In this document: one piece after another, positions 2,306 to 31,153 of the stretch
Layout: each line of letters opens with the position of its first letter
Position numbering within the stretch: the stretch's first letter is position 1
Source: Candidatus Scalindua sp.
Lineage (GTDB): Bacteria > Planctomycetota > Brocadiia > Brocadiales > Scalinduaceae
Length of the DNA: 32,000 nt
Direction of reading: 5' to 3'
Assembly: GCA_031316235.1 (NCBI GenBank)
Contig: JALDRA010000001.1
Location: 2,100,001 to 2,132,000 of the forward strand
Made by a program: the position numbers and the translations under genes
Notes under the pieces: generated by a model
Seen by the model: the letters and a program-made list of their open reading frames with translations, nothing else
Told to the model about the DNA's origin: nothing
Databases searched by the model: none

Positions 2306-2363
2306 GTATACTCATCTCATAATGGTTTTCGGATAAAATCCGAGACCAAATTGAGCGGGTATA
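2306..2363 (-). repeat. R3 hairpin module (inverted copy), contains TCGGAT-AAA-ATCCGA stem-loop at 2329-2343
   Basis: Reverse complement matches 13424-13482, 30545-30582 and 11364-11400 (..ctcggattttatccgaaaac.at.atgagatgagtata). Confidence 0.75.
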
Positions 2364-2471
2364 ACTGCCCGCCTGAACGACATGTCGGGCAGGCAACCAA
2401 GATTTTGTTTTCGGTAAAACCCAGTAGTGTCCGGTCAGGTTTTTGCGTATTTAATTTATTGTTCAAAAGAT

Positions 2472-2550
2472 GTCATTCCCGCATGTTTTTAGCGGAAATC
2501 CAGGATGAATGAGACTCTCTGGATACCCGATAAAAGCACTCGGGTATGAC
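2472..2550. repeat. Palindromic REP-like unit (cattcccgc..gcggaaatcc and atacccga..tcgggtat hairpins)
   Basis: 8-bp perfect stem ATACCCGA/TCGGGTAT at 2523-2530/2540-2547, with an imperfect stem upstream. Single copy in this window. Confidence 0.45.
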
Positions 2551-2576
2551 AAAAGCCGCACGTGCAAATTCCTAAC

Positions 2577-3003
2577 CGGACGTTACTGATTCTCAACAGA
2601 AGAATATGAGATATTTTTAATATCGGTGAAAGGGTATTGTGTCAAACCAAAATAGGTGACCAAAATATATCCCAATTATTTGCAATATCATTGTCGGGGG
2701 AGCTATCGGGAATAAGTTTCCCTGAGCTTGCAGAAAGATATAAAATAGCAACTTATAAGACGATAACATCAAATGAAAGAAAAGGGAGAGAGCAGCATAA
2801 AGAAAAAAATAATATGCAAAGCTAATGCAGTCAAGGGGGGATTTGATCCTTTGTACAATCTCCTTTTTATGGGAAATTTTATAATGTGTATACGATGTTG
2901 TGGTATAAAAAGTGTACGATGTTATGAAACACACCAGCCAATCACAAATCAAGGTATGACCCCAAGTATGACCCAATAAATAGGTATGGTGTCCCCCGAA
3001 TAG
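2577..3003 (+). repeat. R1 interspersed noncoding repeat, copy A (core ~2590-2849, tail-A 2850-2966 with a ~24-nt internal duplication, DR25-like end 2978-3003)
   Basis: About 90% identical by eye to 13540-13902 and 30639-30899; partial copies at 7226-7300, 11521-11720, 18606-18742. Confidence 0.85.
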
Positions 3004-3170
3004 TCACAGGCCATTCGCCAGCCCCCGTCCCCGATGATTGACCCCATCTTGTCAAAGTTAAAGAACCGACCTCGATGATGCCCCGATGACGAGAGCCAAC
3101 GAACAAAGCCCGAAACGACCCATGGGCCAATCTGACCTGCAGATCGGACCTCGGGGTGTTGCGTGCAGTG

Positions 3171-6000: not shown

Positions 6001-6305
6001 TCCTACACAACATTTGGTACCTTTATGGGATTAGACCCAACTACGTAGTGTGCTTATGGGTTATTATAGAAAGATAAATACTTTGAGTATTTCTGAAGAT
6101 CAGGAGGTGGGTAAAAATAACTTAACCCAAGTCGACAAATCGGAGCTAAAAAGTGCAAAAAATGGTAATATATCAGCCATTCGCTCTGCTTTTCCATACC
6201 TCCCTGCCGTGTAAATATTTTGCCAATCTCTCCCATTTAAGGAATAACAAAAACCTCGAAAAAAAAAGCTGGCGTCCGGTTTCGATTTATGGTATACAAT
6301 ACCAA

Positions 6306-7226
6306 ATGAGAAACAAATGGATTATAAGAGGTCGTACAATCAGCGAAGATGATATCTCCATCATCAACAATCTGATAAAAGAGTATTTCCATAAAGGACG
6401 CAAACACATTTCCCGCCAACTAGCACACCATTGGAACTGGTATCAACCCAATGGACAAACAAAGGACATGGCCTGCCGGTACATACTCCTCTCTTTGGAA
6501 CAAGTAGGAGTAATAAAATTACCCCCTCGTCTTAATTCGGCTAATAATGAGAAGAGAAAGATTGAAAAGATAGAACTGGATAAAAAGCCACTCACCGGAA
6601 CAGTTACAAACCATCCCTCTTTGAAGTTAAAACATCTCATCTCCCCGGAAGAACATAAGCTCTGGAACAGAATAATCCACAGCTATCACTACCAGGGATA
6701 CCAGATAATAGTTGGTAAATATCTCAAGTACATAGCATACATTGATGACAGACCAGTGGCCCTTGTGGGTTGGGGATCAGCTGCATGGTCTTTAGAGGCA
6801 CGTGATACGTGGATTGGGTGGAGTAAAGAGATGAAGGATAGGAATCTTTGTGGGATAGTGAACAATATTCGGTTTTTGATTTTGCCATGGGTCAAGATTA
6901 AATACCTGGCAAGTAGAATTCTGGGGTTAAATATAAGGCGAATACAAGGTGATTGGAAAAAGAGATATGGACATTCTATTTATTTATTGGAAACATTTGT
7001 AGAACAAGACAAGTTTCATGGGACATGCTACAAAGCGGCAAACTGGACATACCTGGGTCAAACAAAAGGGAACGCTAAACGAGGAAATACCCATACATAC
7101 CACGGGAAGATAAAAAAGGTATTCGTATATCCTCTGTGTAATGATTTTCGGGACAAACTCACCCGCCAGGATGACTTTGTCGTCTGCCCGTACCGGTCCG
7201 GACGGGCGCTAGTGGAGAAGGGGTGA
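6306..7226 (+). CDS. DUF4338 domain protein (DruA-like family)
   Basis: ..HSYHYQGYQIIVGKYLKYIAY.., ALVGWGSAAWSLEARDTWIGW, NNIRFLILPW, YLLETFVEQDKFHGTCYKAANWTYLGQTKG. Start chosen at MRNKW (6306) rather than the ORF-track 6153. Confidence 0.75.
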   Translation: MRNKWIIRGRTISEDDISIINNLIKEYFHKGRKHISRQLAHHWNWYQPNGQTKDMACRYILLSLEQVGVIKLPPRLNSANNEKRKIEKIELDKKPLTGTVTNHPSLKLKHLISPEEHKLWNRIIHSYHYQGYQIIVGKYLKYIAYIDDRPVALVGWGSAAWSLEARDTWIGWSKEMKDRNLCGIVNNIRFLILPWVKIKYLASRILGLNIRRIQGDWKKRYGHSIYLLETFVEQDKFHGTCYKAANWTYLGQTKGNAKRGNTHTYHGKIKKVFVYPLCNDFRDKLTRQDDFVVCPYRSGRALVEKG

Positions 7227-7553
7227 TGGAAAAGGGAGAGAGCAGCATAAAGAAAAAAACAATATGCAAGGCTAATGCAGTCAAGGGGAGAATTGACCCC
7301 AAACTCACTATAATAATCATTACACACCAGATGTTTTCCAGCAGTTGTTAACAGTCCCTTCGCAGTTTACACTCAAGAATTTAATCAGAGCTCCTTGATG
7401 AAATAATTATGATGCAAATTGATATCTATTAGATGGATTGTAATATCAAGGTCGTGTGTTAGCTCTATAATCAGCTGCCGGGATATACCGAATGGCTAAT
7501 ATATTACGTTCTTTGTTTCTAGCATGTAGCCATGTATGGACTTGCCCCCTTTA
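7226..7553 (+). repeat. R1 3' segment (7226-7300) joined to R4 module (7300-7553), copy B
   Basis: 7300-7553 differs from 30900-31153 at only 2 positions by eye. It begins exactly at the DUF4338 stop codon. Confidence 0.85.
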
Positions 7554-7643
7554 ATAAGCCTTCAAGAGTTTTTCAATAACAAGGTGACCAGCAAATAAAG
7601 CCCAGGCATAATGCTCGTTGTTAAAAAAACTTTCCATTGCCTG
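7552..7643 (-). pseudogene. About 90-bp fragment of the HEPN gene (duplicate of 12286-12377)
   Basis: taataagccttcaagagtttttcaataacaaggtgaccagcaaataaagcccaggcataatgctcgttgttaaaaa.actttccattgcctga is nearly identical to the intact HEPN CDS interior. Confidence 0.8.
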
Positions 7644-7702
7644 ACGAGTCTTTTGGCGGAGCTGACCTCCACTTTGCTTTTGTTCACCCTATCCCTCAAA
7701 TT

Positions 7703-7727
7703 AAATGAGTATGGTGTCCCCAGATTA
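7703..7727 (+). repeat. DR25 direct repeat (aaatgagtatggtgtccccagatta), left copy flanking the Gp49/XRE cassette
   Basis: Matches 8567-8591 (1 mismatch in the 25-nt core; 27 of 29 when the flanks are included) and, more loosely, 2978-3003. Confidence 0.8.
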
Positions 7728-7794
7728 CTGCTAATACATAATCAAAGCGATCTCTAACCGGTCGTCGTAAAGCACAGTACTTTGTTTGCTGTTT

Positions 7795-8440: not shown

Positions 8441-8566
8441 TCAAGAGAGAAAGTTTGTGTTAGATTGAGGATAGTGATTGATAGTCTTAATTTTGTTCAT
8501 AAGAAGTGATAATACGAGAGATGATTCCTCACATAAAATAAGGATGACAAAATCCGAAAACATTTT

Positions 8567-8591
8567 AAATAAGTATGGTGTCCCCAGATTA
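8567..8591 (+). repeat. DR25 direct repeat, right copy (aaataagtatggtgtccccagatta)
   Basis: See 7703-7727. Confidence 0.8.
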
Positions 8592-8717
8592 ATGTAGAAG
8601 TTTCTCATGGGCCTTATCATGGGCCCCGTCATGGGCTTTCTCTAATTTTTTTAACGCAATATCTTTCCACTCATGAGCGCTTAGCAGTTTTAAGAGTTCC
8701 TTTTCATTCATACTCAT
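8589..8717 (-). pseudogene. N-terminal remnant of an AlbA_2/AAA-4-type regulator, running into a short tandem repeat
   Basis: MSMNEKELLKLLSAHEWKDI.. resembles the N-terminus of the 468-aa protein at 16730-18136 (MTEKELLIKLEEF..). The frame then reads through three tandem CATGGGCC units (8607-8637). Confidence 0.3.
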
Positions 8718-9216: not shown

Positions 9217-9491
9217 TTCCTCACCCTGATCTAATATCCGCCAGTTCATACCACATATTTTTTCCAACCTCCAATTACTTTCATAAATTACGGGTTAAGG
9301 TCCTGAAAGCTTTGTGGTTTATCGCGGAGCAGATTTATAAGCCAGCTAATAGAAGAAGATTTGTCAGAAACAAACAGAAACACTATATAGAGAATTATAG
9401 GTATTATTGACGGTCATTATATTGTTCATACATCTGAAAAATTAAAAAACCGAAGGTTCTGAATTGAATTCAGGAGCTATTCAGCCAAATT

Positions 9492-9612
9492 AAAAGAATC
9501 TACGTGATGAAATCAAAATAGAAAAATTATAGTTTTAAATCTGTGGCTTTTTAAAACTAGTTTTACCCAGAAACATGTTTCTAAATCATTATGCGGGATT
9601 ATTTGTCAATAG
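9492..9612 (+). repeat. R2 repeat, copy 1 (~121 bp; contains the perfect 14-nt palindrome AGAAACATGTTTCT at 9569-9582)
   Basis: Near-identical to 11400-11520 except for a ~16-nt variable patch. Confidence 0.85.
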
Positions 9613-9638
9613 GTTAGGTTTAACCCCAGCATTCCTTT

Positions 9639-11120: not shown

Positions 11121-11357
11121 CTAAAACCCCAATCCATTTTTCCTGGCCGGTACGTCGTCTATCAAGCGCTTTTCATCTGTTACAATAAAATGGAGAGCAG
11201 AAAGTGCATTGGCTAATCTCCAGAAAAGTGGATTGCGACCCACTGCTTCCTCAACCAAAAAGCGTTTCAGTGCTTCTCCGCGACCTGCTGCAAAGATAAT
11301 CATGCTCTGGTGAAGGTATCCCCGGACAAAAAGCGCCGAGGACTTAACTTGATTCAT
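11121..11357 (-). pseudogene. Probable C-terminal remnant of a DUF1156/COG1743-type (defence-associated methylase-like) protein
   Basis: ..LHQSMIIFAAGRGEALKRFLVEEAVGRNPLFWRLANALSALH..DEKRLIDDVPARKNGLGF* resembles from memory the tail of that family. Only 78 codons, and the ATG abuts repeat R3. Confidence 0.3.
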
Positions 11358-11363
11358 TTTTTT

Positions 11364-11400
11364 CCGGATTTTATCCTAAATCCATTATGAGATGAGTATA
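11364..11400 (+). repeat. R3 hairpin module (partial, degenerate stem)
   Basis: ccggattttatcctaaatccattatgagatgagtata. Confidence 0.65.
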
Positions 11401-11520
11401 AAAGAATCTACGTGATGAAATCAAAATAGAAAAATTATAGTTTTGAAAGTGGGGTTTTTTTTAACTAGTTTTACCCAGAAACATGTTTCTAAATCATTAT
11501 GCGGGATTATTTGTCAATAG
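11400..11520 (+). repeat. R2 repeat, copy 2 (palindrome AGAAACATGTTTCT at 11477-11490)
   Basis: See 9492-9612. Confidence 0.85.
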
Positions 11521-11720
11521 AATAGGTGACCAAAATATACCCCAATTATTTGCAATATCATTGTCGGGGGAGCTATCGGGAATAAGTTTCCCTGAGCTTG
11601 CAGAAAGATATAAAATAGCAACTTATAAGACGATAACATCAATGAAAGAAAATGGAGAGAGCAGCATAAAGAAAAAAACAATATGCAAGGCTAATGCAGT
11701 CAAGGGGAGATTTGATCCCA
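11521..11720 (+). repeat. R1 repeat, copy C (5'-truncated core, no tail)
   Basis: aataggtgaccaaaatat...cagtcaaggggagatttgatccca. Carries a 1-nt indel relative to copies A/D (aatgaaagaaaatg versus aaatgaaagaaaag). Confidence 0.85.
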
Positions 11721-11741
11721 ATTCCAATTCCTCTGTTTTAC

Positions 11742-12065
11742 TTAAATAATTCTTTCTCCTGTTTTTATTATCTCTCGAATATAAGGATTTGTTTCATCAA
11801 AATCTGTCTTCGCAAATGGATGAGGTTCTATGCGGAGATCAACAATTCTTCTTAGCTTCATTAATGTTGAATCTTCTTCAAAACCATCAAGATCATTCTT
11901 TTCCAGAAAAATAGCCAAATCTATATCGCTTTCACTATTGTAGGTGTTCTTTGCATAAGAACCGTAAAGATATAATCTCCATATCGGTATATGATTTTTT
12001 TTAATAATATCAATGTACTCGTTAATTTTTTTGTAGACTAATTTTTTATCTTTTCGATGAGCCAT
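11742..12065 (-). CDS. Minimal nucleotidyltransferase (MNT) partner of HEPN
   Basis: LYLYGSYAKNTYNSESDIDLAIF (GS..DxD NTase motif). Overlaps the HEPN gene by 28 nt. Confidence 0.85.
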   Translation of the reverse strand: MAHRKDKKLVYKKINEYIDIIKKNHIPIWRLYLYGSYAKNTYNSESDIDLAIFLEKNDLDGFEEDSTLMKLRRIVDLRIEPHPFAKTDFDETNPYIREIIKTGERII

Positions 12066-12430
12066 TTTCTGAAGTCCTTTATTCTGGTAATATAATTTTC
12101 TGTAAATTTTCCGGTTGCCTTTCTATAGAATCTATTTTTATAGTCAGGATATCTTGCTTTAATATTGAAAGTGGTGACATCATCAAGAAAGTCTTCCTGT
12201 TCTTCTGATAAGGTAAGACCTGCTTTTCTGGCTATACTTGACAAATCATGGGAATACGGGATGTCAGTATTTACATTTTTCATGTAATAAGCCTTCAAGA
12301 GTTTTTCAATAACAAGGTGACCAGCAAATAAAGCCCAGGCATAATGCTCGTTGTTAAAAAGACTTTCCATTGCCTGAAAATCATTATCTGAAGAACTAAG
12401 CCAGTATCTTATAATTTCATCTTTTATCAT
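12038..12430 (-). CDS. HEPN domain protein
   Basis: ..DNDFQAMESLFNNEHYAWALFAGHLVIEKLLKAYY..HDL.. About 130 aa, adjacent to MNT. Confidence 0.8.
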   Translation of the reverse strand: MIKDEIIRYWLSSSDNDFQAMESLFNNEHYAWALFAGHLVIEKLLKAYYMKNVNTDIPYSHDLSSIARKAGLTLSEEQEDFLDDVTTFNIKARYPDYKNRFYRKATGKFTENYITRIKDFRKWLIEKIKN

Positions 12431-12621
12431 ATTAATTACTAATTCTTATTGTTTTCGCTGTCTTCAATGTATTCTCTATTTTCCCGTTTATTTACTTATA
12501 GCTTCAGGTTCCATATTGTACTCTCTCACATCATGTATGCCAGTTTTTTTATTTCCGGTACTTTTAAATACAAATATCTTTCCTTATTCACTAATAAAGG
12601 TTTGATGCCCTAAGCTCACTC

Positions 12622-13281: not shown

Positions 13282-13343
13282 AATTTCAATATACCTTTGT
13301 TATTAAATTATCGACCTTTACGAAAGTTATTTAATGAGTTGAT

Positions 13344-13373
13344 TTAATGAGTTTCCGTACGGAAACTCATTAA
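13344..13373. promoter_or_regulatory. Perfect 30-nt palindrome TTAATGAGTTTCCGTACGGAAACTCATTAA
   Basis: 63-92 nt upstream of the gspG-like start. A partial extra half-site ttaatgagtt lies at 13331-13340. Confidence 0.4.
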
Positions 13374-13423
13374 ACTAAAACCGATTTGGTTTTCGGTATT
13401 ACCTGAAACCAGATCTTGGTGAA

Positions 13424-13902
13424 GGTATACTCGCTCAATTTGATCTCGGATTTTATCCGAAAACAATCATGAGATGAGTATATCATATGATAAATCGAGG
13501 AACAAACCCTGATAGAATCTTTTGCAAAGAGGAATGTTATTCTCAACAGAAGAATATGAGATATTTTTAATATCGGTGAAAGTGTATTGTGTCAAACCAG
13601 AATAGGTGACCAAAATATACCCCAATTATTTGCAATATCATTGTCGGGGGAGCTATCGGGATTAAGTTTCCCTGAGCTTGCAGAAAGATATAAAATAGCA
13701 ACTTATAAGACGATAACATCAAATGAAAGAAAAGGTAGGGAGTAGCATAAAGAAAAAAACAATATGCAAAGCTAATGCAGTCAAGGGGAAATTTGACCCC
13801 AAAACCTCACTTTGTACAATCTCCTTTTTATGGGAAATTATATAATGTGTATACGATGTTATGAAACACACAAGCTAATCACTAATCAAGGTTTGACCCC
13901 AA
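13424..13902 (+). repeat. Composite repeat copy D: R3 (13424-13482, stem-loop TCGGATTTTATCCGA 13446-13460), linker, R1 core (13540-13800), tail-A (13801-13902)
   Basis: The linker + core match 30583-30899. Tail-A matches 2850-2966 and 18646-18742. Confidence 0.85.
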
Positions 13903-13953
13903 TTGCTTTATAACTTGAATAATGAAGATGACCTTTGAAATTCAGGTGCTTAA

Positions 13954-18136: not shown

Positions 18137-18175
18137 GCGTTAATAGTACCTCTATCTCTCCTGTTACGGTTTCAC

Positions 18176-18310
18176 TCATTCATCCTCATCCTCAGCCTCA
18201 GCCTCACCCTCTCCAAACAGAGCCTTTTGTCCACCTGTCTGTTCGTCAAAGGCGCATCTGCCACGCCTGCGGCAGATGCGATATTTGATGCCTGGCTTGA
18301 ACCTAGCAGA
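18176..18310 (-). pseudogene. C-terminal gene remnant paralogous to 1351-1518
   Basis: ..FKPGIKYRICRRRGRCAFDEQTGGQKALFGEGEAEAEDEDE*. The ICRRRGRCA segment is encoded by the perfect hairpin at 18253-18280. Confidence 0.3.
18253..18280. repeat. Perfect 10-bp stem / 8-nt loop hairpin CGCATCTGCC-acgcctgc-GGCAGATGCG
   Basis: Read directly. Embedded in the gene remnant, with no convincing T-tract. Confidence 0.6.
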
Positions 18311-18572
18311 ATGGGTGCATTGTGATCCTAAATAACAGTCGCTGTTCCTATTGTCCCTCTCTATTCAGAATTTGCAAAATACGCTTAACGTGATGATTCA
18401 TTACTGAGATTTTTAAAGTCACTTACCCAGAGATATTTCAGTTTCATCTATCTACCCTTTGATATAAAGCTCAATACTGCATCCAGTAATTTACTTGAAC
18501 ATTCTATTTTTTAACGGTACATCATTTTTATTTTTAGTACAGGATCTCTTTTAAATATCCATATATTTCCTT

Positions 18573-18742
18573 AATCACTGATCAAGGTTTGACGTCATTT
18601 TTCGTGCAAGGCTAATGCAGTCAAGAGGAGATTTGATCCCAATACCTCACTTTGTACAATCTCCTTTTTATGGGAAATTATATAATGTGTATACGATGTT
18701 ATGGAACACACCAACTAATCACAAATCAAGGTTTGACCCCAA
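18573..18742 (+). repeat. R1 copy E (3' core fragment 18606-18645 + tail-A), bracketed by direct repeats aatcac..atcaaggtttgac (18573-18594 and 18716-18737)
   Basis: gcaaggctaatgcagtcaagaggagatttgatccc + ..cctcactttgtacaatctcctttttatgggaaattatataatgtgtatacgatgtt.. Confidence 0.8.
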
Positions 18743-18794
18743 GTGTCTCCAAGAACCAATTGTTTTGTGTTGGTTTATATTTCCCCTGAAGTCT

Positions 18795-21700
18795 TCAGGT
18801 AGGCTGAATGGATTCATTTAATTTGTTTGTCTTTAAAATTATTTTAAACATTTTCTTAATGTATGTGGCTTCGTCTTCCTGAAACAATACATTATGCTTC
18901 TCGACATCTTCCTTATTAAGCTTTTTATCCCACCATTTTATTTGATAATGCTCTGTAACAGAGATAATGAATGAATTCAAAATAACATCTTTGTCACCAA
19001 TCTGGCCTTCAAGAGTTTTAATCTCTTTATGAAAACGCATTTTAGGATCATCGAGGCCTTTTGCATGACGAATACCATGAGGATCGATAAATGTAATGAA
19101 TTGTGTTCCGCCATAAACTACCCACATGATAAAGTCCGGATAAAAATTATGAGCCTGAAAGAAACCGACTCCTCTGCCTCTACCCAGATTCCGGAGTAAA
19201 TACATCTCCTTATCTTTAAAATAATCAATATTGTCCTCATAGTGTTTCTTCAAGTCGGCAACAAATTGATTCTCTCCCTTATTCAAGGCAACCGGTATCA
19301 CCTTTATTTCGCTATCTTTTATGTAAATCATGGGTTTATACAGGTGTCGGTCGAAAGAGAATGAGTGTAAAGATCCGAACTCAAAATTACTGAAATCCTG
19401 GTTTTCTATCTTTTGTTTCAGCTCTGTAAGTTTGGTAATAATATCCTCCCGAGACTTTTCAACCGTAAAGGTATACTCATCAAAAAGATTACCCTTCTTT
19501 TCCTGAGCTGACAAAGCTGTTTCAACTTCATGAATATACTTATATTCAATCTTATCTTTCTCATAATCTAATTTTTTCACATTGTAATACTGATCACAAT
19601 ATTTCTTCAGTAAGACAACGGCTATATCCTGCCATAATTGAACCTGTTCGAATGATTTAAGTTCAAGTTCTTCCTCTGGAATATATAGGATATACCAGTC
19701 AGTTCTCGCCAACAAGGCAGGAAGAATATTCTTATCAATATTCAAATTATAATAACAGCGTTCATTCTTGTATTTCTGTAATTCAAAATAGATCTCTTCA
19801 ACATCCATAAAAGCAAGATGTACACTCTTTAATTCTCCTTCGTTAAATGTTGCCACTGCAGTGGAACGGGCCATCCTGCTTTGCAGGGCTTCTATCTTCG
19901 GGTACCAGTCAACGAGAACCGGATGTTCAAGCATGTAGTCATCAGGCTCTCCCAGCGTTGGCCGTTCACCCTGTTTCTTGAAATTAACTCCCTCTTTAAG
20001 CTGAGGATATTTAAGTTTGGTTTTCCCCAGATTAGAAATAGCCGGTATCGCAATCTCTTCGTATTCATCTGCTCCTTTAACCCCTTCATCCTCCAGATAT
20101 TCTCTGAATTGACGCATATAATCCGCCTTGACGCCAAACACATGAAGCGTCTCAACTATGCCGATGTTCTTGGGAATGTTAACACTCTTCAAATATTTGC
20201 TTCGTTTCAGGCTCATATCGTATCCCTTCAAGCGCACACCTCTTCCAAACAACTGAATAATTTCAGACCCTTCCGTTTTACCCACATTCATAAGACCCAT
20301 TGTGCTTACGCGCCAGCTGTTCCAGCCTTCCGTGAATTTCTTTGATCCTATCAGGATTTTTACCGGAGAACTCTTTTCAGAGAGCCGATGGAAAAGCGAA
20401 TCAGAAAAATCTTTGCTTGAAGCAATGAGACCATTCTGTTCACAAAGGTTTATCAGATCACGGTCATCTCCGACATTGATAACGCCGAAATGCTCATTGT
20501 CTCCAAGTCTCAGGCCTATCTCTCCCTGCGCTCCTTTCAGATTGTCTAAATGCATATGTGCCTCAACAGTAGTACAATTAAAGACCTGTTTCCTGATATC
20601 AGTGTATAAGTCATTCGCTTCCATTCTCTTGGAGATTAAATATATGAATTTTCCGGCAAAAAGGTCATTTCCTCTGGTGTCATTCAGCTGAGATGTCCCA
20701 CTGAGTAATCTCTCAATATATTCAATTGATTCCTGCGTATTCCTTAAAAAACTGTCCAGAAACAGAAGGATGTCTACCACATCGGAAACCTTGCTGCCCT
20801 GTTCAGTGCGAACTGCGTTTACCCTGCTGCCGACAAAAATCCAGAGCGGCTCTTCCAGTAAAAACGGAGAAAATGCCCTTTCGTTTTCATGAAACAATAA
20901 AAGCTGCTGGTAGAAACTCAAGAGACATGCAGTTAAGTAAAGCTGTTTCTGCTCTTCATGACGATTTTCTGCAAGATTTAATATTGAATACTCTTTTCCG
21001 TATCCGTCCCGGTAGAAATATTTATACGAATAGTCAAACAGGATGCACTTTGCATACTGCTGAAGCATCTCTTTTTTACCGGATGCCTTCATGGCCTGAC
21101 CGAATGTCGCCGAATACTCAAAGGAAAAGCCATCCTCACACAGGCGATTGCGTTTATCCATCCACTCTATCCCGCCGGCACCTCGATGGCCTTCATCAAC
21201 AAGCACCAGATTTTTCCCCTCAAAACAATCCACGCTGACTGTCTTCTCTTTTGACTCTTCCTTTAATTTATGGATATCAATAATCTCAATTTCGTTACTA
21301 ATAAACAGCCCCAAAGCGTCTTTTTTGAAAAGATCAGCCGTGAAACCTGATAACAGAAATTCTTTTCAATGCTGTTCTGAAAGCCCCTCGTTGGGAGTTA
21401 AAAGGATTGTCCTGTTTACCTTTTTCTTTAAACCATATCTCTTTTGATAATGCTGATACTGAAGTATGTTTATGTGCATGATCAATGTTTTACCTGATCC
21501 CGTCGCCTGCCAGAAGGCTATCTTGTTGAGCTCTTCAATTGCGTATGGCATAACCTGTTCACCTGGTTCTCTGTCTGTATTAAACTGCGTGACAAAATCA
21601 TTCAGCTCCGTGAGCAGGTTTTGCGGATTTCGAAAGTATCTGTCCAGATAAATCTCGCAGAAAAGGAGCGCCATATACTGAAAATACTTCCAGCGAAATC

Positions 21701-21989
21701 CTTCACGTTTCGAGCAAATACGCAGGGTGTGGCTAACGATATTCTGATCAAACTGTAGAAGGAGATCGTCAGGCAGGGCTTTACGTTCAAAGAGTTGGTT
21801 GGTCAGGTGTGTGTGAAAGTGGGAGACATTATTCTCATCGACACCCTCCAGATGCTGTGCTTTCATGCCATCGCACAAATTATCCAGTGACTCTACCTCA
21901 AAGAGAAAAAGGATATATTGGAAAAGCACGAGGGACTTTCCAAACTTGAAATCTGCCTGTCTCCGTCTGTTTTGTTGTCTTTTAGCCAT
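18795..21989 (-). pseudogene. Type III Res-like SF2 helicase with a C-terminal nuclease-like motif; one reading frame interrupted by a single in-frame TGA (21366-21368)
   Basis: ORFs 21366..21989 and 18795..21314 are in the same frame. Read-through gives ..LTPNEGLSEQH*KEFLLSGFTADLFKKDALGLFISNE.. Motifs: ATGSGKT, VLVDEGHRG, FTEGWNSWR, QLFGRGVRLKG, YPDFIMW..FIDPHG. Confidence 0.8.
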
Positions 21990-22160
21990 AGTATTTATAT
22001 AATTGATTGTATATCACTATATTTATAAGCCATATCCGCTTAGGTTACATATAGTTATAATTTTTGTCTCACTAAATATACACAAACATGTTTGCGTCTC
22101 ATTAGCAGTCTTAAATGAGACACAAAATGTATTTTTGTTTCATCAGTTAGATGCTAAACG

Positions 22161-23255
22161 TTATTCCACAATTTCGAGTAACTTATTAAAAATATATATG
22201 CTGGCTTTTCTTCCGCCTCCTTTACGCAAAACCGAAATTACGCCTTCTTTTTCAAGCAATTTCATAAAACGCATCGCACTTGCCTTAGGAATGCCCGAGC
22301 TATGGATAAAGTCACTGGCGCTAAAGACTGGCCTGGCAAAAAGTGTGTCGATGATATTAATAACATATTGAGACCTTGTAATAGTTTGCATACGCTCTTT
22401 CTTCTTTTCATATAATTCCAATATTTCTCTCGCCTTTTTACTGTTTGTTTTTGCCTGTTCAACGATAGAGCGTAAAAAGAACTCTATCCACTCTTCCCAT
22501 TTCTTATTTTGAGTAATAGCTTTTAGTCTCTCATAATATTCATCTCTATTGGCCTCAAGGTATTCACTTATATAAAACATCGGAGTACTGAGCACCCTTT
22601 TTTCGTATAGTAATAATGGAATCAATATCCTTCCAACCCTTCCGTTTCCATCTACAAAGGGGTGAATTATTTCAAATTGAGCGTGAACAACGGCAAGCTG
22701 GACTAGCGTATCCTTTTCATCAAAATGTATATACTTCTCAAAATTAGATAAGTACTCCATTAAGCGCATTGGCTCTGGTGGAACGTAATAAGCTTGTTCC
22801 ACAGGCGTTCCCGGTTTACCAATCCAGTTTTGAACACTCCTAAATCTACCCCTTCCCTTATCTTTACCCCTAACACTATCTAAAAGTTGGCCGTGTATCT
22901 CTTTTATCAAATTTAATGTGATTGGCTTTTTCATAAGCCAGTCAAGCGCCATATCAATAGCCTTGCGATAATTTATTATTTCCTGGATATCCTTTTCTTT
23001 TTCAGTCTGTATCACAGCTTGAGCAGAAGCTTCGAATTCAAGAACCTCTACAAGGCTAGCCTGTGTCCCTTCAATGCGTGAAGAAAGAACTGCCTCATTA
23101 GTAGTAAGGGGTGATAAGAGCACACGTGGATTGATAATTCCCTGTAAAATACCATCATAACGAGCTAACTCAGCATTCGCCTTTCCTATAAGAGTTATAA
23201 ATCTTACCCAATCAATGTCTTGTAGTGGTAATGTATCCGGAATAAATGGTTTCAT
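22161..23255 (-). CDS. fic: Fic-domain protein (AMPylase-type) with N-terminal inhibitory motif and C-terminal wHTH
   Basis: HPFVDGNGRVGR (HxFx[DE]GNGRxxR). SSRIEGT matches [ST]xxxE[GN]. C-terminal ..GIPKASAMRFMKLLEKEGVISVLRKG. Confidence 0.9.
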   Translation of the reverse strand: MKPFIPDTLPLQDIDWVRFITLIGKANAELARYDGILQGIINPRVLLSPLTTNEAVLSSRIEGTQASLVEVLEFEASAQAVIQTEKEKDIQEIINYRKAIDMALDWLMKKPITLNLIKEIHGQLLDSVRGKDKGRGRFRSVQNWIGKPGTPVEQAYYVPPEPMRLMEYLSNFEKYIHFDEKDTLVQLAVVHAQFEIIHPFVDGNGRVGRILIPLLLYEKRVLSTPMFYISEYLEANRDEYYERLKAITQNKKWEEWIEFFLRSIVEQAKTNSKKAREILELYEKKKERMQTITRSQYVINIIDTLFARPVFSASDFIHSSGIPKASAMRFMKLLEKEGVISVLRKGGGRKASIYIFNKLLEIVE

Positions 23256-23283
23256 TTTTTCTTTTTTCAGATTCTATAGGGAG

Positions 23284-26200
23284 TTAAATTTCCTTAACAT
23301 CAAACATCCGTTTCTTAAACTCTTCTTCTATGAGAGAGACCTTCCATCTGTCCTCATCAACCTTCAGGTTTTCAAGATTGTTGTCTCCATTAACAAATAT
23401 CTTATCAAATTCAAAATCCTGAGTATTATAACCCTGCTTGGTAAAAAAGGTATCCAGTTCCTCATTTGTCTTTTCTTTCGTATTTCTCCAAATTACGAGT
23501 GTCTTTTCTCCTGTGCGCAATTTACCACGAATCACCTTGAATCCCCGAATAACTTCTGTCTGCTCAACATAAAGGCCGACCAGGTAATTAAAGGTTTCTA
23601 TCAGGTCTATTTTTTTTGTCTTCAGCTCATTCTCATCGCGAATCTTGAGGGTATAATGAAAAGGGTCTTCAAACCTGTCAATATTGAGCAGGCTGTCGCT
23701 TTCCCGAGTCTCTATATCCAGCATATATCCAATCACATAATCTTCTTTTGCGGCCTTACTCATATCAAGTACCATCTGCTGCTTTTCATCCCGATTAAGA
23801 ATAAGATTATCGAGTGTATCTTCGTAGCTTTCAAGTTTCATGTATTTGAACATGTGGCTAACGCCCTCACGGGAAACCGGTTTGCCGTTTTTCCAGTCTT
23901 TGGAATAGACTACCTTTTGTATACGTGGTTTGAGAACCGTATCAAAATACTGCCCCATCTCAACGAGGATATATTTACGATTACCATTGTCTTCACGGTT
24001 AAGGTTTATAACGGCATGGGCAGTGGTGCCGGAGCCGGCAAAGTAATCGATAAATAATGTATAAAGTCCATAGCTTATGGATTGCAAGCAATCTTCAACA
24101 GCATGTAAGCTTTTAGGAAAAGAAAAATCTCTTTGCCCTATTCCAAAAATATCATTTAACAATTCTGAGCCATAAGTACTTGCATCAAGTTTTTTTCCTG
24201 TCCAAACTGATTTTCGTAGCTTTTGTTTTCCCTCTTGATGATAGTGTATTTGAATAGCTCCTTTAATTATTTTTGCCCATACACTACCTTCCTCTGCATC
24301 TTGAATTACTCTCTCTCTCCCATAATACCACCTTCTCTCTACATTATTATCATCAATTGGCCAAATCATTTCTGTTCTTGGATTTTTATGTTTAGGGATA
24401 TCATCCTCCAATGCCAAAGGTTCAGTTGTCCCAACTATCTTCAGTGTTTGTTTGTCTACTTCGATTCCATAAAACTGCTTAGGTGATGAGCTTCTAGTAG
24501 AATCTGTTCCTGTCCTCCTCAAGTTTCTTCTTATGTCATTTGACTTTTCCTTTTTACGAGTAATTAAATCCTTATCTCTTTTAATTGCCCACAACGCATA
24601 TTCATGAGTAATAGCAAAATTACTTTTTACTCTACCTCTATGATTATACTCAATAATAACTGGTCTTATCTCATATTCTGTCATCACCTGTTCAATAATT
24701 TTTGTTAAATTACTTAATTCACAATCATCAATTGTTGCACATAAAATACCATTTTTATTTAATAGCGACTTACCTTTGTCAATTCGATCATAAATCAAGC
24801 AATTCCAACTGCTATCTTTATACCCATTTTTATAAACAATCTCTGTGGCATCAGTATTGTATGGAGGATCAATATAAACCCCATACACTTTCTCCTGATA
24901 TTTTTCTCGCAACAAATTCAACGCTTGAAAATTCTCTGAATTAATTATCAATCCATCACACGCTTCATCAACATTATCAAAACTTGCCAGCAGTTTTTCC
25001 TTAAACTCATCACTGAAGAATTTCGTATCGAGAACCAGATAGTGATTGGCTTCCAGAAAGTTCCTGGTAAGCGGTTCTGAGTATGCGGGTTTCATTAAAT
25101 CTCCCTCAATCTCATGAATGGCAAACAGCCTTACCCACTCCTCACGCTGGGCGTCATTTTTTACTATCTCCTCATACAGCCCTGCCGGCACACGGTCTAA
25201 CGTAACACAATATCCGCAATCAACCACAAACTTCTTCTTGAGCCACATCTTCTTCTGAAACTCCTCAATCTGTGCCAGAAATGTTATGATCTTCCGGGCA
25301 ATATGCTTAAGAACCTTGACCTTCCCGATAGACCGCATCACCTTTTTCTCATCCTGTTCATCAAGGTCATCAATAAAGAGGACTTCATTCTTGATATAGA
25401 AATCCAGTTCGCGCCGCATGAAACCGCCGAGATCTTTGTGGATAAAGAAGTCAAAATTGAACCGGGCGGTGTAGTCGTTCAAATGCTTTTCGAAAAGTGT
25501 TCGCTTTGGATTCTTTGGAGTCGACTTTTTTATAAACAGATCCTGATAGCCCTCCTTTACAAGATATCCATCTCTAGAATCAACATATTCCACTGTCTTT
25601 TTATTCAGATCCGTCTGTTTTGCCTTATCAGGTTGATACGTAAACTGAATATACAAATCGTTTTCTTCAATCTTAATCGGTTCTTCCTCATAGAGTTTAA
25701 ACTTTCGTTCTTTCCCCTGTTCCTGTTTAACATTATCCTTCTCTTCAGTCGCGTCAACAAGCTTGAAATGCACCCGTTTGTCACCATCAATCTTAAATGC
25801 ATAATCCCTCAGATATTCAGATGATTTTATGTAGTATTGATCAGCGTTCGCCCAATGGAGCTTAACCTCTTCTCCCTCGTAGGGTATTGCATAGGTATCT
25901 TTCTTATAACGCCGGAGGCTTAAGAAGTCGCCGTCATCATAGTAACGTCTGAAAAAGGTAGTCAGATGTGAGAAGACCTCATTTACAAGCGCCTCCTCAT
26001 TGCCATATGTTCCAAGCTCTTCACGCAATTCTCTTACTTTAGGCGAATCATCAGGATTCAGTCCGCTTTCCTTGACTGTCTTTTCCAAACGGGCTAACTC
26101 CTTCTGCTTTTCCCCTGCATCGACGCTTTTGTATTTTGAGAATTCTTCTTTCACCTGAGGCAGAAGTTCTTTATCGAGAAAGTGCTCTATTTCATCCCTC

Positions 26201-26301
26201 TTCTGATTCATGATACGATAGATGCCAAAATCAAGATCAGCCTGGTCCATCTGAAACATCTGCCGTAAAATCTTTTTCAATTTTTCATATTGTGTTTCCA
26301 T
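23284..26301 (-). CDS. Beta-class N6-adenine (N6_N4 type, type III Mod-like) DNA methyltransferase with a ~460-aa N-terminal extension
   Basis: VYIDPPYNT (motif IV) precedes DYFAGSGTTAHAV (motif I) by about 260 aa. N-terminal LDFGIYRIMN and FIHKDLGGFMRRELDFYIKNE regions have unknown function. Confidence 0.9.
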   Translation of the reverse strand: METQYEKLKKILRQMFQMDQADLDFGIYRIMNQKRDEIEHFLDKELLPQVKEEFSKYKSVDAGEKQKELARLEKTVKESGLNPDDSPKVRELREELGTYGNEEALVNEVFSHLTTFFRRYYDDGDFLSLRRYKKDTYAIPYEGEEVKLHWANADQYYIKSSEYLRDYAFKIDGDKRVHFKLVDATEEKDNVKQEQGKERKFKLYEEEPIKIEENDLYIQFTYQPDKAKQTDLNKKTVEYVDSRDGYLVKEGYQDLFIKKSTPKNPKRTLFEKHLNDYTARFNFDFFIHKDLGGFMRRELDFYIKNEVLFIDDLDEQDEKKVMRSIGKVKVLKHIARKIITFLAQIEEFQKKMWLKKKFVVDCGYCVTLDRVPAGLYEEIVKNDAQREEWVRLFAIHEIEGDLMKPAYSEPLTRNFLEANHYLVLDTKFFSDEFKEKLLASFDNVDEACDGLIINSENFQALNLLREKYQEKVYGVYIDPPYNTDATEIVYKNGYKDSSWNCLIYDRIDKGKSLLNKNGILCATIDDCELSNLTKIIEQVMTEYEIRPVIIEYNHRGRVKSNFAITHEYALWAIKRDKDLITRKKEKSNDIRRNLRRTGTDSTRSSSPKQFYGIEVDKQTLKIVGTTEPLALEDDIPKHKNPRTEMIWPIDDNNVERRWYYGRERVIQDAEEGSVWAKIIKGAIQIHYHQEGKQKLRKSVWTGKKLDASTYGSELLNDIFGIGQRDFSFPKSLHAVEDCLQSISYGLYTLFIDYFAGSGTTAHAVINLNREDNGNRKYILVEMGQYFDTVLKPRIQKVVYSKDWKNGKPVSREGVSHMFKYMKLESYEDTLDNLILNRDEKQQMVLDMSKAAKEDYVIGYMLDIETRESDSLLNIDRFEDPFHYTLKIRDENELKTKKIDLIETFNYLVGLYVEQTEVIRGFKVIRGKLRTGEKTLVIWRNTKEKTNEELDTFFTKQGYNTQDFEFDKIFVNGDNNLENLKVDEDRWKVSLIEEEFKKRMFDVKEI

Positions 26302-26322
26302 ATGTTTATTGTCTCTCTTGTG

Positions 26323-29192
26323 TTAAACAACCTTCCATCGTATCATAAATAATGTTTCGGTATCAGTTTTCTGCTCCATCTTTTTCTTGAGCGTGTCAAT
26401 CAGTATATCACGTTTTTCTTCTATTTCATCCTCTACATCAAAGATTCGCTGTCGCTGCCTGCGTTGAATTTTTTCTGTTTCCCTGATCTTTACCTCAACG
26501 TCATGCTTCTCCTGCAGGGATGTCGATTGGCGCAACTCTCGGTTCAAAGCACGGAGTCTGTTCTTGGTATCCTTTAATTCCTTTTCGGCAGATGAGATCA
26601 GGTCATCTGTCCAGCGAAACAGGCGATCGCATTCATCATGATAATAGGAATTGTTCCGTTCCATTGTCTTATCGATCGTAGCGTCAATATGACATTGAGC
26701 GTCATCTCGCAATCTCTTCTGTATTTCATCCGGCAAACTAACATCTCTTTGAGTAGTGGCGCCACAATCAAACAATTTCTCGCAAATTTCAGGATGAATT
26801 ACAGCGCCTGTATCATCGAAAGCATTAAAAAGTAAATATTCGTCCTGCCCGAAACTCTTAATCATGAGTTTAGATAGTATCAAATACCCTGATTTTCGCT
26901 TGAGTGACTCAACGACAGATATCTTAACAGGATGGCTGCTGATATCAAAGACTAGTTCTGCATAAGGGGTATTGCATCTTCTCGATTCTGACAATACATA
27001 CTCCCCAAGAGGATGAGACATGCGATATAAATATATACTTTCAACATTTTCTTTTCTTTTTGATATTAAATGATAGTTGCCGGTGCGGATTGTATTGCCA
27101 GGTGGTTCCTTAAGATAAAACGATAACTCTTCACAATGGAATTCTGCTCTCTTCTCCAAGACATGTTCCGTAATCTTCCAGAATCTCAGCTCCATCTTAT
27201 CAAGTAAATCCTGTGTTTGGTCCAAATGCAGTTTAAGACGTTCGTGTACATCCTCATCAAAATGTTCAAGGAGAATCTGTTTGCTTTCCTTAATCTTTGA
27301 TTGAATCTGTTCGTCCATTTTCTGTTGTAATTCTGAAAAGGCGCTCTGAATCTCCTGTGGTTTGCGGCATTGCCGGTAGATTCGTAACACCTCCTTCTCA
27401 AAATCGACACCTGATTCGAGCGAACCAAGTACTTCATCAGATGCACCAAAGACACCACTGAACAGTTTAAATTTATATACCAAAAGATCATATACCTGTC
27501 GGTCAACGTCATTGCGTTCATTTAAGAAATTAATCACGACAACATCATATTTTTGTCCGTAGCGGTGACATCTTCCTATTCGCTGTTCTATACGTTGCGG
27601 GTTCCATGGCAGATCATAATTGATAACCAGTGAACAGAATTGCAGATTTATTCCCTCTGCAGCAGCTTCAGTTGCGATAAGAATATCCGATGTATCTCTA
27701 AAATGCTCCAGGATGGCAATACGTTTATCCGAGCTCTTCGATCCACTGATACGACCGGTGTCTCTGTTGTGCTCAAGCCAGTTTTCATATATTTTTTTAG
27801 ACTCCTGGTCTGTATTTGTTCCGTTAAACGTAACAACTCTTCCTGCATAGCCGTTGGCATCCAGATAGTCCTTTAAGTATTGTTGTGTCCGACGTGATTC
27901 GGTAAATACAACAGCTTTTTTCTTTGCCCCCATTTTCTCCGCTTCCGCAAAACCGCGTTCAATGCCGTCTCTGAGCTTTTTTGTTTTTGAGTCGACTTTG
28001 ATAACCTTTGCGTCTTCAATAAATTTTTCCAGCAATTCAATTTCGTGATCAATCTTTTCCTTATCAATTTTACCTCCATCCTGATCTTCTGTTTTATCTT
28101 CCTCCTCTTTCATGGCTATTCCCAGTTCTTCCATCTCCTCATCATCCAGGGATTCATCATCAACCAACTGATCAACGATGTTTTCTTCTACCGGTTGTTC
28201 ATCACTTAACTTCTCTAAACGTCTTTTTATTGTTTCCAATGTTGCTATGAGAGCATAGGATGATGATGCCAGTATTTTTCTCATCACCAAGGTAATAAGA
28301 GATTTCTGGCTTGTTGGTATGGCGTAGGTATCAGGCTGTTGGAGAAATGCTGTTATGCCCTGATATAATTTTATCTCTCGATCGGTCTGTGCGAAGTGAA
28401 TGGTTATTGCTTTGCGATTAGTATAGGGGATATATTGTAACACCTGCTGGCGCAGTGTGCGTTTACAAAAACCTTTTAAACGAGTCTTAAGGCTTTCTAA
28501 GTCGGCATCATTAACATATAATTGACGAAAACTTCTGCTATCTCCAAAGAGATAATCGTCTATAATTGTGGATAAACCAAAAGCTCCATTAACGAATTCT
28601 GTAGTGGGGTTGCTGTCAAAAGTATCTTCTTTGTGTCTTCCAGAACCCACTTAATCGATTGTCCGAGTACATTTGATCTGCGGTATGCGTTTCTCAGCTT
28701 ATGAGCTTCATCAATAATTGCTAAGTCCCAGGGGATTAATTTTGTTGTTTCTTTCTTACTATGTATGAACTGATATGAACAGATAACAACTTTATCCTGG
28801 GTAAATGGGTTATCATAACCATCATTATTGAACTGATTATACGTCCTAGACTCAAGAATCACGGAAGGTATATTAAATTTTTCTTCAAGCTCTATGCTCC
28901 ATTGCTTTCTTATCGATGCCGGACAAACAACGAGTAATTTTCGCTTACGTTCTGCCCAATACTGGCAAAGCGCTATAGATGCTTCGATTGTTTTACCCAA
29001 ACCAACCTCATCAGCCAGGACAACACCTTTTGACAAAGGAGACTTTAAGGCGAAAAGAGCTGCTTCTATTTGATGGGGATTCAAGTCAACCGCAGCATCA
29101 AAAAGGGAACGAGATATCTTCTCAATCCCATCTTCAGTGGATGATTTCAGCAAGTCGTGTGCATAATATTTAGCATGATAATCGGTAATCAT
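26323..29192 (-). pseudogene. SNF2-family helicase with a long C-terminal extension; split by a 1-nt frameshift near 28579-28582
   Basis: The N-terminal ORF ends ..LTATPLQNSLMELLVYPQL*. The second ORF contains ..AFGLSTIIDDYLFGD.. One extra T in the cttttgg run would give ..SLMELFGLSTIIDD.. Motifs: DEVGLGKT, IIDEAHKLRN, LTATPLQNS, QRIGRCHRYGQ. Confidence 0.8.
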
Positions 29193-29334: not shown

Positions 29335-29490
29335 TCAAGAAGATCCTTTACGAGAGTTATGATATCGACATAAAACTTGTCCATTAAAAATAGCAGTGGG
29401 CCCACCCTTAGTATGTGGTATTATATGGTCTGCTTCATATTCATTCCAACCTACCGTTGCCTCTTTTTCATTTTTTTCTTCTTGCATCAT
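29335..29490 (-). pseudogene. 51-codon HNH nuclease core mini-ORF, probably a truncated gene
   Basis: MMQEEKNEKEATVGWNEYEADHIIPHTKGGPTAIFNGQVLCRYHNSRKGSS*: DH..N..HN core present, upstream CxxC absent. The ATG lies 3 nt from the RAYT left inverted repeat. Confidence 0.45.
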
Positions 29491-29492
29491 AA

Positions 29493-29505
29493 GGGTCAAG
29501 TCTGC
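29493..29505. repeat. RAYT-flanking inverted repeat, left arm GGGTCAAGTCTGC (overlaps the RAYT stop codon)
   Basis: Perfect reverse complement of 30514-30526. Confidence 0.8.
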
Positions 29506-30476: not shown

Positions 30477-30513
30477 TGCAACAATATAACACCATCAAGT
30501 AGTATAGTCAATA

Positions 30514-30526
30514 GCAGACTTGACCC
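30514..30526. repeat. RAYT-flanking inverted repeat, right arm GCAGACTTGACCC
   Basis: See 29493-29505. Part of the hairpin GTCAA-tagcagac-TTGAC (30507-30524). Confidence 0.8.
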
Positions 30527-30544
30527 CTTTACCGACCCCTTTAC

Positions 30545-31153
30545 CCGGATTTTATCCGAAAACAATCATGAGATGAGTATATCATGTGATGAATCGAGGA
30601 ACAAACCCTGATAGAATCTTTTGCAAAGAGGAAGGTTATTCTCAACAGAAGAATATGAGATATTTTTAATATCGGTGAAAGTGTATTGTGTCAAACCAAA
30701 AGAGGTAACCAAAATATACCCCAATTATTTGCAATATCATTGTCTGGGGAGCTATCGGGATTAAGTTTCCCTGGGCTTGCAGAAAGAAATAAAATAGCAA
30801 CTTATAAGACTGTAACATCAAATGAAAGAAAAGGTAGAGAGTAGCATAAAGAAAAAAACAATATGCAAGGCTTATGCAGTCAAGAGGAGGATTGACCCCA
30901 AACTCACTATAATAATCATTACACACCAGATGTTTTCCAGCAGTTGTTAACAGTCCCTTCGCAGTTTACACTCAAGAATTTAATCAGAGCTCCTTGATGA
31001 AATAATTATGATGCAAATTGATATCTATTAGATGGATTGTAATATCAAGGTCGTGTGTTAGCTCTATAATCAGCTGCCGGGATATACCGAATGGCTAATA
31101 TATTACGTTCTTTGTTTTTAGCATGTAGCCATGTATGGACTTGACCCCTTTAC
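30545..31153 (+). repeat. Composite repeat copy F: R3 (30545-30582), linker, R1 core (30639-30899), R4 (30900-31153); bracketed by the 16-bp direct repeat gacttgacccctttac (30517-30532 and 31138-31153)
   Basis: Matches copy D (R3-linker-core) and copy B (core 3' end + R4). Confidence 0.85.

Follow-up and report, generated by a model that had tools for sequence, protein, structure and literature searches.

Intergenic repeats in a Candidatus Scalindua gene-cassette island are decayed fragments of a TIRtron

Results

Gene cassettes and R1 copies of the island

The window, i.e. the whole stretch of 32,000 nucleotides of Candidatus Scalindua sp. analysed here, carries an accessory-gene island in which the genes neighbouring the repeats lie on the minus strand and the repeats occupy the gaps between gene cassettes. 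The neighbours are mostly toxin-antitoxin pairs, a PD-(D/E)XK protein, a HEPN/nucleotidyltransferase, a pseudopilin and a methylase/helicase block, and a repeat is found 12 to 235 nt 3' of the stop codon of almost every cassette. The only long plus-strand ORF between about 2.3 and 32 kb encodes a DruA-like protein (PF14236, Druantia; 6153-7226). A group II intron occupies positions 12-1310, with an ORF for a reverse transcriptase/maturase (12-1124; RVT_1 + GIIM) and, at 1157-1310, a match to Rfam Intron_gpII, and a 58-nt stretch at 1344-1401 resembles 18169-18226 (79%). The segment 3171-5312, which encodes on the minus strand a secreted-looking protein of 713 aa with no Pfam match, has a G+C content of 54-57% against about 38% around it and is probably foreign DNA. 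The methylase/helicase block (18795-29192, minus strand) is defence-like and comprises an N6_N4 methylase (1005 aa) and a Fic protein; two helicases are each split in two ORFs (28560-29192 and 26323-28650; 21366-21989 and 18795-21314), possibly through frameshifts or phase variation.

The first-pass annotation had described a repeat, R1, present in six copies of a single orientation. Using a repeat finder and a self-BLAST of the window, all six were recovered on the plus strand at about the positions given there (copies A to F, Table 1), all of them direct and none inverted. The core, reported as roughly 90% identical, shows pairwise identities of 87-98% (E from 1e-23 to 1e-162). The mosaic organisation was also found as described: 3' of the core, tail-A is present in A, D and E and R4 in B and F, while R3 and a linker precede the core in D and F. 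In copy C, a 1-nt deletion joins two frames into an ORF of 88 aa.

Table 1. Coordinates of the R1 copies, of their modules and of the resident TIRtron in the window.
Feature	Position	Strand	Description
Copy A	2589-2965	+	Core 2589-2849, then tail-A with an internal duplication
Copy A, ends	T1 2821-2849; T2 2942-2963	+	T1 degenerate (TTGATCC)
Copy B	7229-7300	+	Last 72 nt of the core with T1, directly 3' of the stop of the DruA-like gene
Copy B, R4	7301-7553	+	Ends in TIR type T3
Copy C	11356-11721	+	Partial R3 11356-11400, D5 module 11399-11527, 5'-truncated core with T1 11508-11721
Copy D	13423/13447-13905	+	R3, linker, core, tail-A
Copy D, R3	13423-13482	.	60-nt imperfect palindrome at the 5' edge; separate from the transposase remnant
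Copy D, linker	13481-13540	+	Remnant of TIRYT N-terminal codons about 13-33 (YHMINRGTNPDRIFCKEECY)
Copy D, core	13539-13796	+	Pseudogene remnant, Bac_DnaA_C-like HTH, residues about 228-328
Copy D, T1	13772-13800	+	Right TIR of the dead unit (CTAATGCAGTCAAGGGGAAATTTGACCCC), overlapping the gene's last codons and stop
Copy D, tail-A	13801-13905	+	Second short module; ends in T2 (TCACTAATCAAGGTTTGACCCC, 13879-13900)
Copy E	18572-18745	+	Solo T2-like repeat 18572-18597, core end of 38 nt with T1 18605-18642
Copy E, tail-A	18643-18745	+	Carries T2
Copy F	30546-31152	+	Half R3, N-terminal remnant 30580-30639, core 30638-30899 (T1 30871-30899)
Copy F, R4	30900-31152	+	Closes with T3 (GGACTTGACCCCTTTAC)
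Solo R3, inverted	2307-2366	-	68 nt upstream of the HigB start
D5 module	9393-9633; also 11399-11527	+	Match in copy C seen only as an alignment extension
Solo T2-like repeat module	12561-12612	+	TTCACTAATAAAGGTTTGATGCCC; below the GspG-like cassette
Resident TIRtron	29490-30532	-	TIRYT gene 29496-30476 (Y1_Tnp + Bac_DnaA_C)
Resident TIRtron, TIRs	29490-29508 (-); 30513-30532 (+)		Inverted GCAGACTTGACCC; the first overlaps the stop

Homology of the core and linker to TIRYT transposases

According to Di Nocera et al. 2013 (PMC3733652), RAYT-like genes flanked by terminal inverted repeats (TIRs) are called TIRYTs, and the units they form TIRtrons. The R1 core had been regarded as noncoding, which is wrong as to its origin, since phmmer, tblastn and a family HMM all identify it as a pseudogene. 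The 88-aa ORF of copy C was compared using phmmer with 1.84 billion representative proteins, yielding 19 matches at E<=1e-3 (best 6.6e-8), which are to the C-terminal regions of Y1 transposases. Among them are a full-length protein of 328 aa with a RPLRIEYPGAWYHAMNRG N-terminus (P0016) and a 132-aa ORF of S. japonica annotated as 'DnaA HTH domain protein'. When the matched proteins were searched against the window with tblastn, copies A, C, D and F aligned colinearly with residues about 207-325 of 328 (E 1e-10 to 5e-20), and a profile HMM of 116 full-length relatives matched the core with E 7e-9 to 5e-6. Positions 13-35 of this HMM matched the linker in copies F (i-E 1.1e-4) and D (i-E 7.8e-3), both of which retain the N-terminal motif YHxMNRG, and residues 14-33 of the resident TIRYT matched the linker of copy F (30580-30639) with 60% identity over 20 residues (E 0.005). 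A word-indexed protein search with the plus-strand peptide of the core returned one Scalindua ORF and none outside Scalindua, and Pfam gave no match to this peptide. By homology, the core is the 3' third of a TIRYT gene, read on the plus strand and encoding a C-terminal Bac_DnaA_C-like HTH.

Having an N-terminal remnant in the linker and the C-terminal core, copies D and F are internal-deletion derivatives of one gene. The same architecture of N-terminus plus C-terminus is seen in an open ORF of 137 aa located elsewhere (P0007). Residues about 36-206 are absent from every R1 copy, so that neither an intact HUH motif nor the catalytic tyrosine is present. R1 is thus a derivative and not a member unit of the TIRtrons, because the region of the HUH motif and tyrosine is missing and the frame contains stops. 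The resident TIRYT, with HYH and YIHHNP, is 100% identical to a Scalindua protein in NCBI (P0020) and about 30-35% identical to the R1 core peptide. Its relation to the dead gene of R1 is that of a distant paralogue. Upstream of copy A, a segment unique to that copy (2367-2588) contains two short hairpins (TTCCCGC..GCGGAAA and ATACCCGA..TCGGGTAT), and faint similarity suggests that the coding remnant may continue at 2520-2588 (residues about 206-227).

Terminal inverted repeats

The invariant 30 nt that end the core (..TTA TGC AGT CAA GGG GAG ATT TGA CCCC) encode LCSQGEI followed by a stop, paralleling the C-terminal LCSQEET/LCSQEWT of the family. According to Di Nocera et al. 2013 (PMC3733652), the TIR motif GGGGWSAS is common to TIRtrons, and TIR copies occur as singles, dimers and clusters; in the classification of Quentin et al. 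2018 (PMC6006769), TIRYTs make up subclass 2.1, whose subgroup 2.1.2 has a Bac_DnaA_C-like C-terminus and is without nearby REP hairpins. At its 3' end the core has ...TTGACCCC; the complement, GGGGTCAA, agrees with GGGGWSAS at 7 of 8 positions, and the type found in metagenome contig L004 (GGGGTCAC) agrees at 8 of 8. In every intact relative read, the end repeat is found again, inverted, upstream of the gene, with 13/13 agreeing positions for the resident gene (GCAGACTTGACCC), about 38/45 for S. arabica L099, 31/31 for L102 and about 36/44 for L004. On these comparisons, the conserved end of the core is the right TIR of a dead TIRtron.

Three TIR types were distinguished. T1 closes the core and is degenerate (TTGATCC(C)) in three of the six copies, namely A, C and E. 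Elsewhere, T1 is found in three metagenome contigs that have only this 30-nt TIR in common with R1: it stands alone in two (L004, L005) and forms an inverted pair with no gene in the third (L006). T2 (TCACTAATCAAGGTTTGACCCC) closes tail-A as well as the solo modules at 12561-12612 and 18572-18597, and matches both TIRs of the intact L004 TIRtron. R4 is closed by T3 (GGACTTGACCCCTTTAC), which is identical to the TIR of the intact gene resident in the window. As for a left TIR, no GGGGTCAA was detected upstream of any R1 copy, where the R3 palindrome is found instead; on the plus strand GGGGTCAA occurs only once, inside a gene. Flanking direct duplications, as a sign of target-site duplication, were searched for at the R1 junctions and none was found.

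The 30-nt end was also considered as a REP hairpin. This reading was rejected: the TIR DNA folds no better than shuffles (z -0.03 to -1.2), and the end is a TIR, in line with the published description of this subclass (PMC6006769). Similarly, the end of D5 (GGTTTAACCCC, 9617-9627) was dropped as a fourth TIR because it aligns equally well to a coding stretch of the core (ATACCCCAA). Among viral contigs, the 29-nt end pattern gave 0 matches; motifs of 15-16 nt from the end gave 22 and 70, about the number expected by chance from a rough estimate of the collection size, with no extended similarity. In L102, a direct copy of the last 52 nt of the T1-type TIRYT gene lies upstream of the intact gene (1-160, 1100-1160) and faces the inverted left TIR 50 nt away, which makes a head-to-head TIR doublet; alternatively, the arrangement reflects a tandem or circular sequence that collapsed in the assembly of this 1.26-kb contig. 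Finally, a 30-nt repeat (TTAAATrAGTATGGTGTCCCCAGATTA) is found downstream of other cassettes at 7701-7730, 8565-8594 and 2976-3005. Its TGTCCCC resembles a TIR end and is without link to any TIRYT gene.

Accompanying modules

R3 folds as DNA at -10.3 kcal/mol (z -3.7). Besides the copies at the edge of D and upstream of HigB, partial copies are present at 11356-11400 and 30546-30581, and further ones in two contigs of another Scalindua genome described below (L001, 2490-2544 and 4533-4569; L002, 1892-1938 and 2458-2514). It behaves as a module of its own, with ...GAGTATA at its end. Relative to minus-strand genes (GspG-like, TIRYT, orf78, HigB), its location in the window varies between overlap with the start codon (copy C) and about 140 nt upstream. 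R3 may thus serve as an operator or a terminator, or it may be a tiny palindromic element. An operator-like sequence is present in the 5' region of the GspG-like gene: a perfect palindrome of 32 nt (13343-13374; TTTAATGAGTTTCCGT/ACGGAAACTCATTAAA), accompanied by a third TTTAATGAGTT at 13330.

From slight similarity to gene residues about 227-265, D5 is probably a second, older and more diverged remnant. When R4, tail-A and the segment upstream of copy A were compared with TIRYT proteins, only colinear, non-significant matches (E 0.2-2) were obtained beyond the last 20-30 nt; D5, too, showed no significant homology to the gene beyond that length (E>0.1). Tail-A and R4 appear to be further short relics, with two other TIR types and weak homology to the gene.

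Decay of the coding sequence

It had been stated that indels break every ORF in R1. ORFs of 62-119 aa do survive, on both strands, and they are not conserved as coding sequence. The core of copy D has in-frame stops and a 7-codon deletion, and still ends at the original TGA stop (13794-13796). One in-frame stop (RRI*DIF) and the 7-codon gap relative to intact proteins are common to A, D and F, from which it follows that copying came after the death of the gene; further stops are found at GRE*HKE and MQS*CSQ. The differences between copies are spread evenly over codon positions. Leaving aside the non-homologous edge of C, they comprise 5 synonymous and 13 nonsynonymous changes, for 22% synonymous expected by chance. 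They include radical replacements within the HTH (E>G, Y>N, P>S/H), and look neutral.

Noncoding RNA, small protein and integron readings

A role for the core as a functional small HTH protein, i.e. a domesticated C-terminal domain expressed from ORFs of 50-88 aa, is very improbable in our judgement. Such a protein would have a candidate ORF spanning the HTH in every long copy (2637-2825; 11483-11749; about 50 aa in D and F) and an annotated homolog in the 132-aa ORF of S. japonica. However, the substitution pattern is neutral, with dN/dS near 1 here and radical changes in the HTH itself, the starts and ends of the ORFs vary among copies, the stops at GRE*HKE and MQS*CSQ fall within the sequence, and no protein among the 1.84e9 representatives is more than 54% identical. 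The structured noncoding RNA gene family put forward in the first-pass annotation found no support and appears hardly credible to us. Its GGGAA..TTCCC hairpin nested in GAGCT..AGCTT does exist but is unexceptional: as DNA, 13650-13695 folds with a z-score of -0.5 and 64 of 200 shuffles fold as well. The hairpin falls in the codons of ELSGLSFPEL; the homologous coding sequence of S. japonica lacks it. The fold of the whole element is better (z -3.4 on the plus strand and -4.4 on the minus strand), but this z-score comes mainly from the separate R3 palindrome. Conservation of 91-96% between two Scalindua species would also fit an RNA gene, yet it is explained by coding ancestry and recent duplication of a pseudogene, the R1 copies differing by no more than 13% and having duplicated recently. 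That R1 resembles no known RNA family was borne out: no credible Rfam match was obtained, either at the gathering threshold for the whole window or at E<=1 for copy D, and Rfam returned only the group II intron elsewhere and noise. A tRNA/tmRNA search returned none, and promoter and terminator scans of copy D stayed at background level.

The repeats could also be read as integron-type attC sites bounding gene cassettes, given that the island contains small cassettes with repeats directly 3' of stop codons, that cassette order varies between strains, and that GTCAAAC...GTTTGAC resembles the R''/R' boxes (RYYYAAC/GTTRRRY). We rejected this reading as most improbable. Each box is one position off the consensus, and the boxes are about 290 nt apart, whereas integron attC sites span 57-141 nt. 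The repeats and the cassette genes have opposite orientations, and no integrase domain is found among the ORFs of the window. The boxes belong to the 8-bp inverted pair previously noted at the ends of R1 (GTCAAACC...GGTTTGAC), which is perfect only in D; A has GGTATGAC, and B and F end in R4. Its two halves are explained separately, GTCAAACC as coding remnant (..CQT..) and GGTTTGAC as part of T2, a different terminal repeat.

Distribution and spread of the copies

A Logan contig matches the window with 100% identity over 7.6 kb. Look-ups of exact proteins (P0020, P0021, HigA and the 201-aa ORF), meant to extend the window, gave no record. In a scan of 185,579 species genomes, the core end was detected on two contigs only (L001 and L002), both from the MAG Candidatus Scalindua sp. 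SCAELEC01. These contigs share cassettes and repeats with the window at 91-96% identity; their cassette order differs from that of the window, with most breakpoints at TIR ends. They are similar cassette islands, and no dispersal of R1 outside such islands was found in SCAELEC01. Taken with the homology, this occurrence essentially corresponds to the outcome that the first-pass annotation had envisaged as contrary to its own proposal, namely that the copies are pieces of a single degraded gene and are limited to the island. In L002, a central TIRYT fragment (2514-2747, minus strand; residues 88-165, 49% identical to P0016) adjoins an R3 copy, which indicates that such islands hold further transposase debris. 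In the window, 93 nt of the HEPN gene (12038-12430) are found twice (7552-7644 and 12285-12377, 99% identity); the former stretch directly follows the terminal repeat of the R4 of copy B and is the scar of a recent rearrangement at a TIR end.

L001 and L002 contain three further R1 copies, giving nine independent copies in all. These have nine different 5' ends (13423, 13436, 13447, 13539, 13585, 13729, 13732, 13753 and 13765 in the coordinates of copy D), and the 3' TIR end is kept in all. The junctions to the next module are located within a few nt of TTGAYCCC. Some composites are common to several copies: core + tail-A (A, D, E), core + R4 (B, F) and core + D5-end (L001, L002).

The account that we find probable is that R1 is the wreck of a TIRtron which spread inside the island by segmental duplication and recombination, and now acts as portable homology. 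The original unit was a Y1/HUH TIRYT gene (Y1_Tnp + Bac_DnaA_C-like HTH) bounded by TIRs ending in ...TTGACCCC. The gene died first, and the copies arose later and then drifted. Copies and composites would have spread within the accessory-gene island through segmental duplication and through recombination between repeats of the same orientation; as whole composites are duplicated, segmental copying is favoured over transposition of a unit. Events specific to the TIR end may have added to the earlier spread. The nine 5' ends with a constant 3' TIR end are not predicted by plain decay or by random segmental duplication, and the closeness of the junctions to TTGAYCCC (a few nt) is a hint that the events were site-specific and not purely homologous. 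Today, the only role of R1 would most likely be that of portable homology through which nearby toxin-antitoxin and defence cassettes can be reshuffled.

The MITE/REPIN-like nature initially suggested for R1 stands as regards its origin from a RAYT-type Y1 unit, the retained right TIR and the internal-deletion anatomy of D and F, and fails as regards the missing left TIR, the lack of target-site duplication, the decay of the TIR in half of the six copies and the nature of the copies as degraded-gene fragments. A rival reading has R1 as a non-autonomous element that is, or was until recently, active through a TIRYT acting in trans, with processing anchored at the right TIR and a variable or cryptic left cut, like one-ended HUH events. 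This we hold to be unlikely. An intact TIRYT is present in the window, but it has another TIR type (T3) and about 30-35% identity to the core peptide. The anatomy of D and F (N-terminal and C-terminal remnants plus a TIR), the open 137-aa ORF of similar anatomy (P0007) and the gene-less inverted T1 pair of L006 are all consistent with mobilisation, as are the nine different 5' ends, the location of every copy on one strand and the junction of the dead core, exactly at its TIR end, to at least four different right-hand neighbours. Against it, no left TIR is found and the single plus-strand GGGGTCAA is inside a gene, the TIR is mutated in A, C and E, composites are common to copies, and matching contigs are limited to the two of SCAELEC01. 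Furthermore, TIRYT activity is presented by Di Nocera et al. 2013 (PMC3733652) as never demonstrated experimentally. A bolder idea, which we consider improbable, is that the ...TTGACCCC repeats are working recombination sites: a TIRYT would cut single-stranded DNA at the 3' edge of the repeat, and segments between repeats of the same strand would be excised and re-inserted beside another. It would explain the nine 5' ends with one 3' end, the junctions near the repeat, the location of the repeat 12-235 nt after stop codons and the breakpoints at repeat ends relative to SCAELEC01. If true, a tyrosine HUH transposase would drive an integron-like shuffling of cassettes, the cargo being a toxin-antitoxin or defence cassette or a 5'-truncated relic.

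Discussion

The R1 family is like TIRtrons (PMC3733652, PMC6006769) in combining Y1_Tnp with a Bac_DnaA_C-like HTH, in its inverted flanking repeats and in an outer end (GGGGTCAA/C) close to GGGGWSAS. In both cases the 3' repeat overlaps the end of the gene, and TIRs are found single, as dimers or clustered. Unlike a TIRtron unit, R1 has lost the HUH and tyrosine motifs and the left TIR, and its frame is broken; unlike TIRtrons, the R1 island stacks fragments of several TIR types head-to-tail on one strand. Repeat copies bearing a pseudogene are not described for TIRtrons in the parts of these two sources consulted here.

Like REPINs, with their RAYTs, and BIMEs, R1 consists of short repeats derived from the ends of a single-copy Y1 transposase gene, which form intergenic mosaics, often just 3' of genes. 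Unlike REP and REPIN sequences, it has no stable palindrome with a GTAG tag, no inverted doublets in the window, a low copy number and long gene remnants. D and F are similar to MITE-like internal-deletion derivatives and to the PATEs of IS200/IS605 in that a piece of the N-terminus, the C-terminus and the element end remain, with the middle deleted; they differ in having one recognisable end, and no target duplication, empty sites or dispersal was seen. In Neisseria, NIMEs with dRS3 are variable modules, with a short conserved motif between them, around exchangeable gene cassettes. The likeness of R1 to NIMEs would be functional only (modules between swappable genes, plausibly promoting recombination), the motif, origin and enzyme being unrelated.

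As regards annotation, some 2.5 kb of conserved repeat between the genes of Scalindua islands turns out to be transposase debris and neither an RNA gene nor small proteins; in public genomes, several of the fragments carry the annotation of hypothetical or 'DnaA HTH' protein. What TIRYT genes leave behind in these anammox Planctomycetota, with three TIR types represented, are solo TIRs and pieces of the genes, clustered on one strand. The constant 3' end and variable 5' end provide a concrete hypothesis on the site of action of TIRYTs. If the repeats act through homology only, they would still help explain how defence and toxin-antitoxin cassettes are reshuffled between close relatives.
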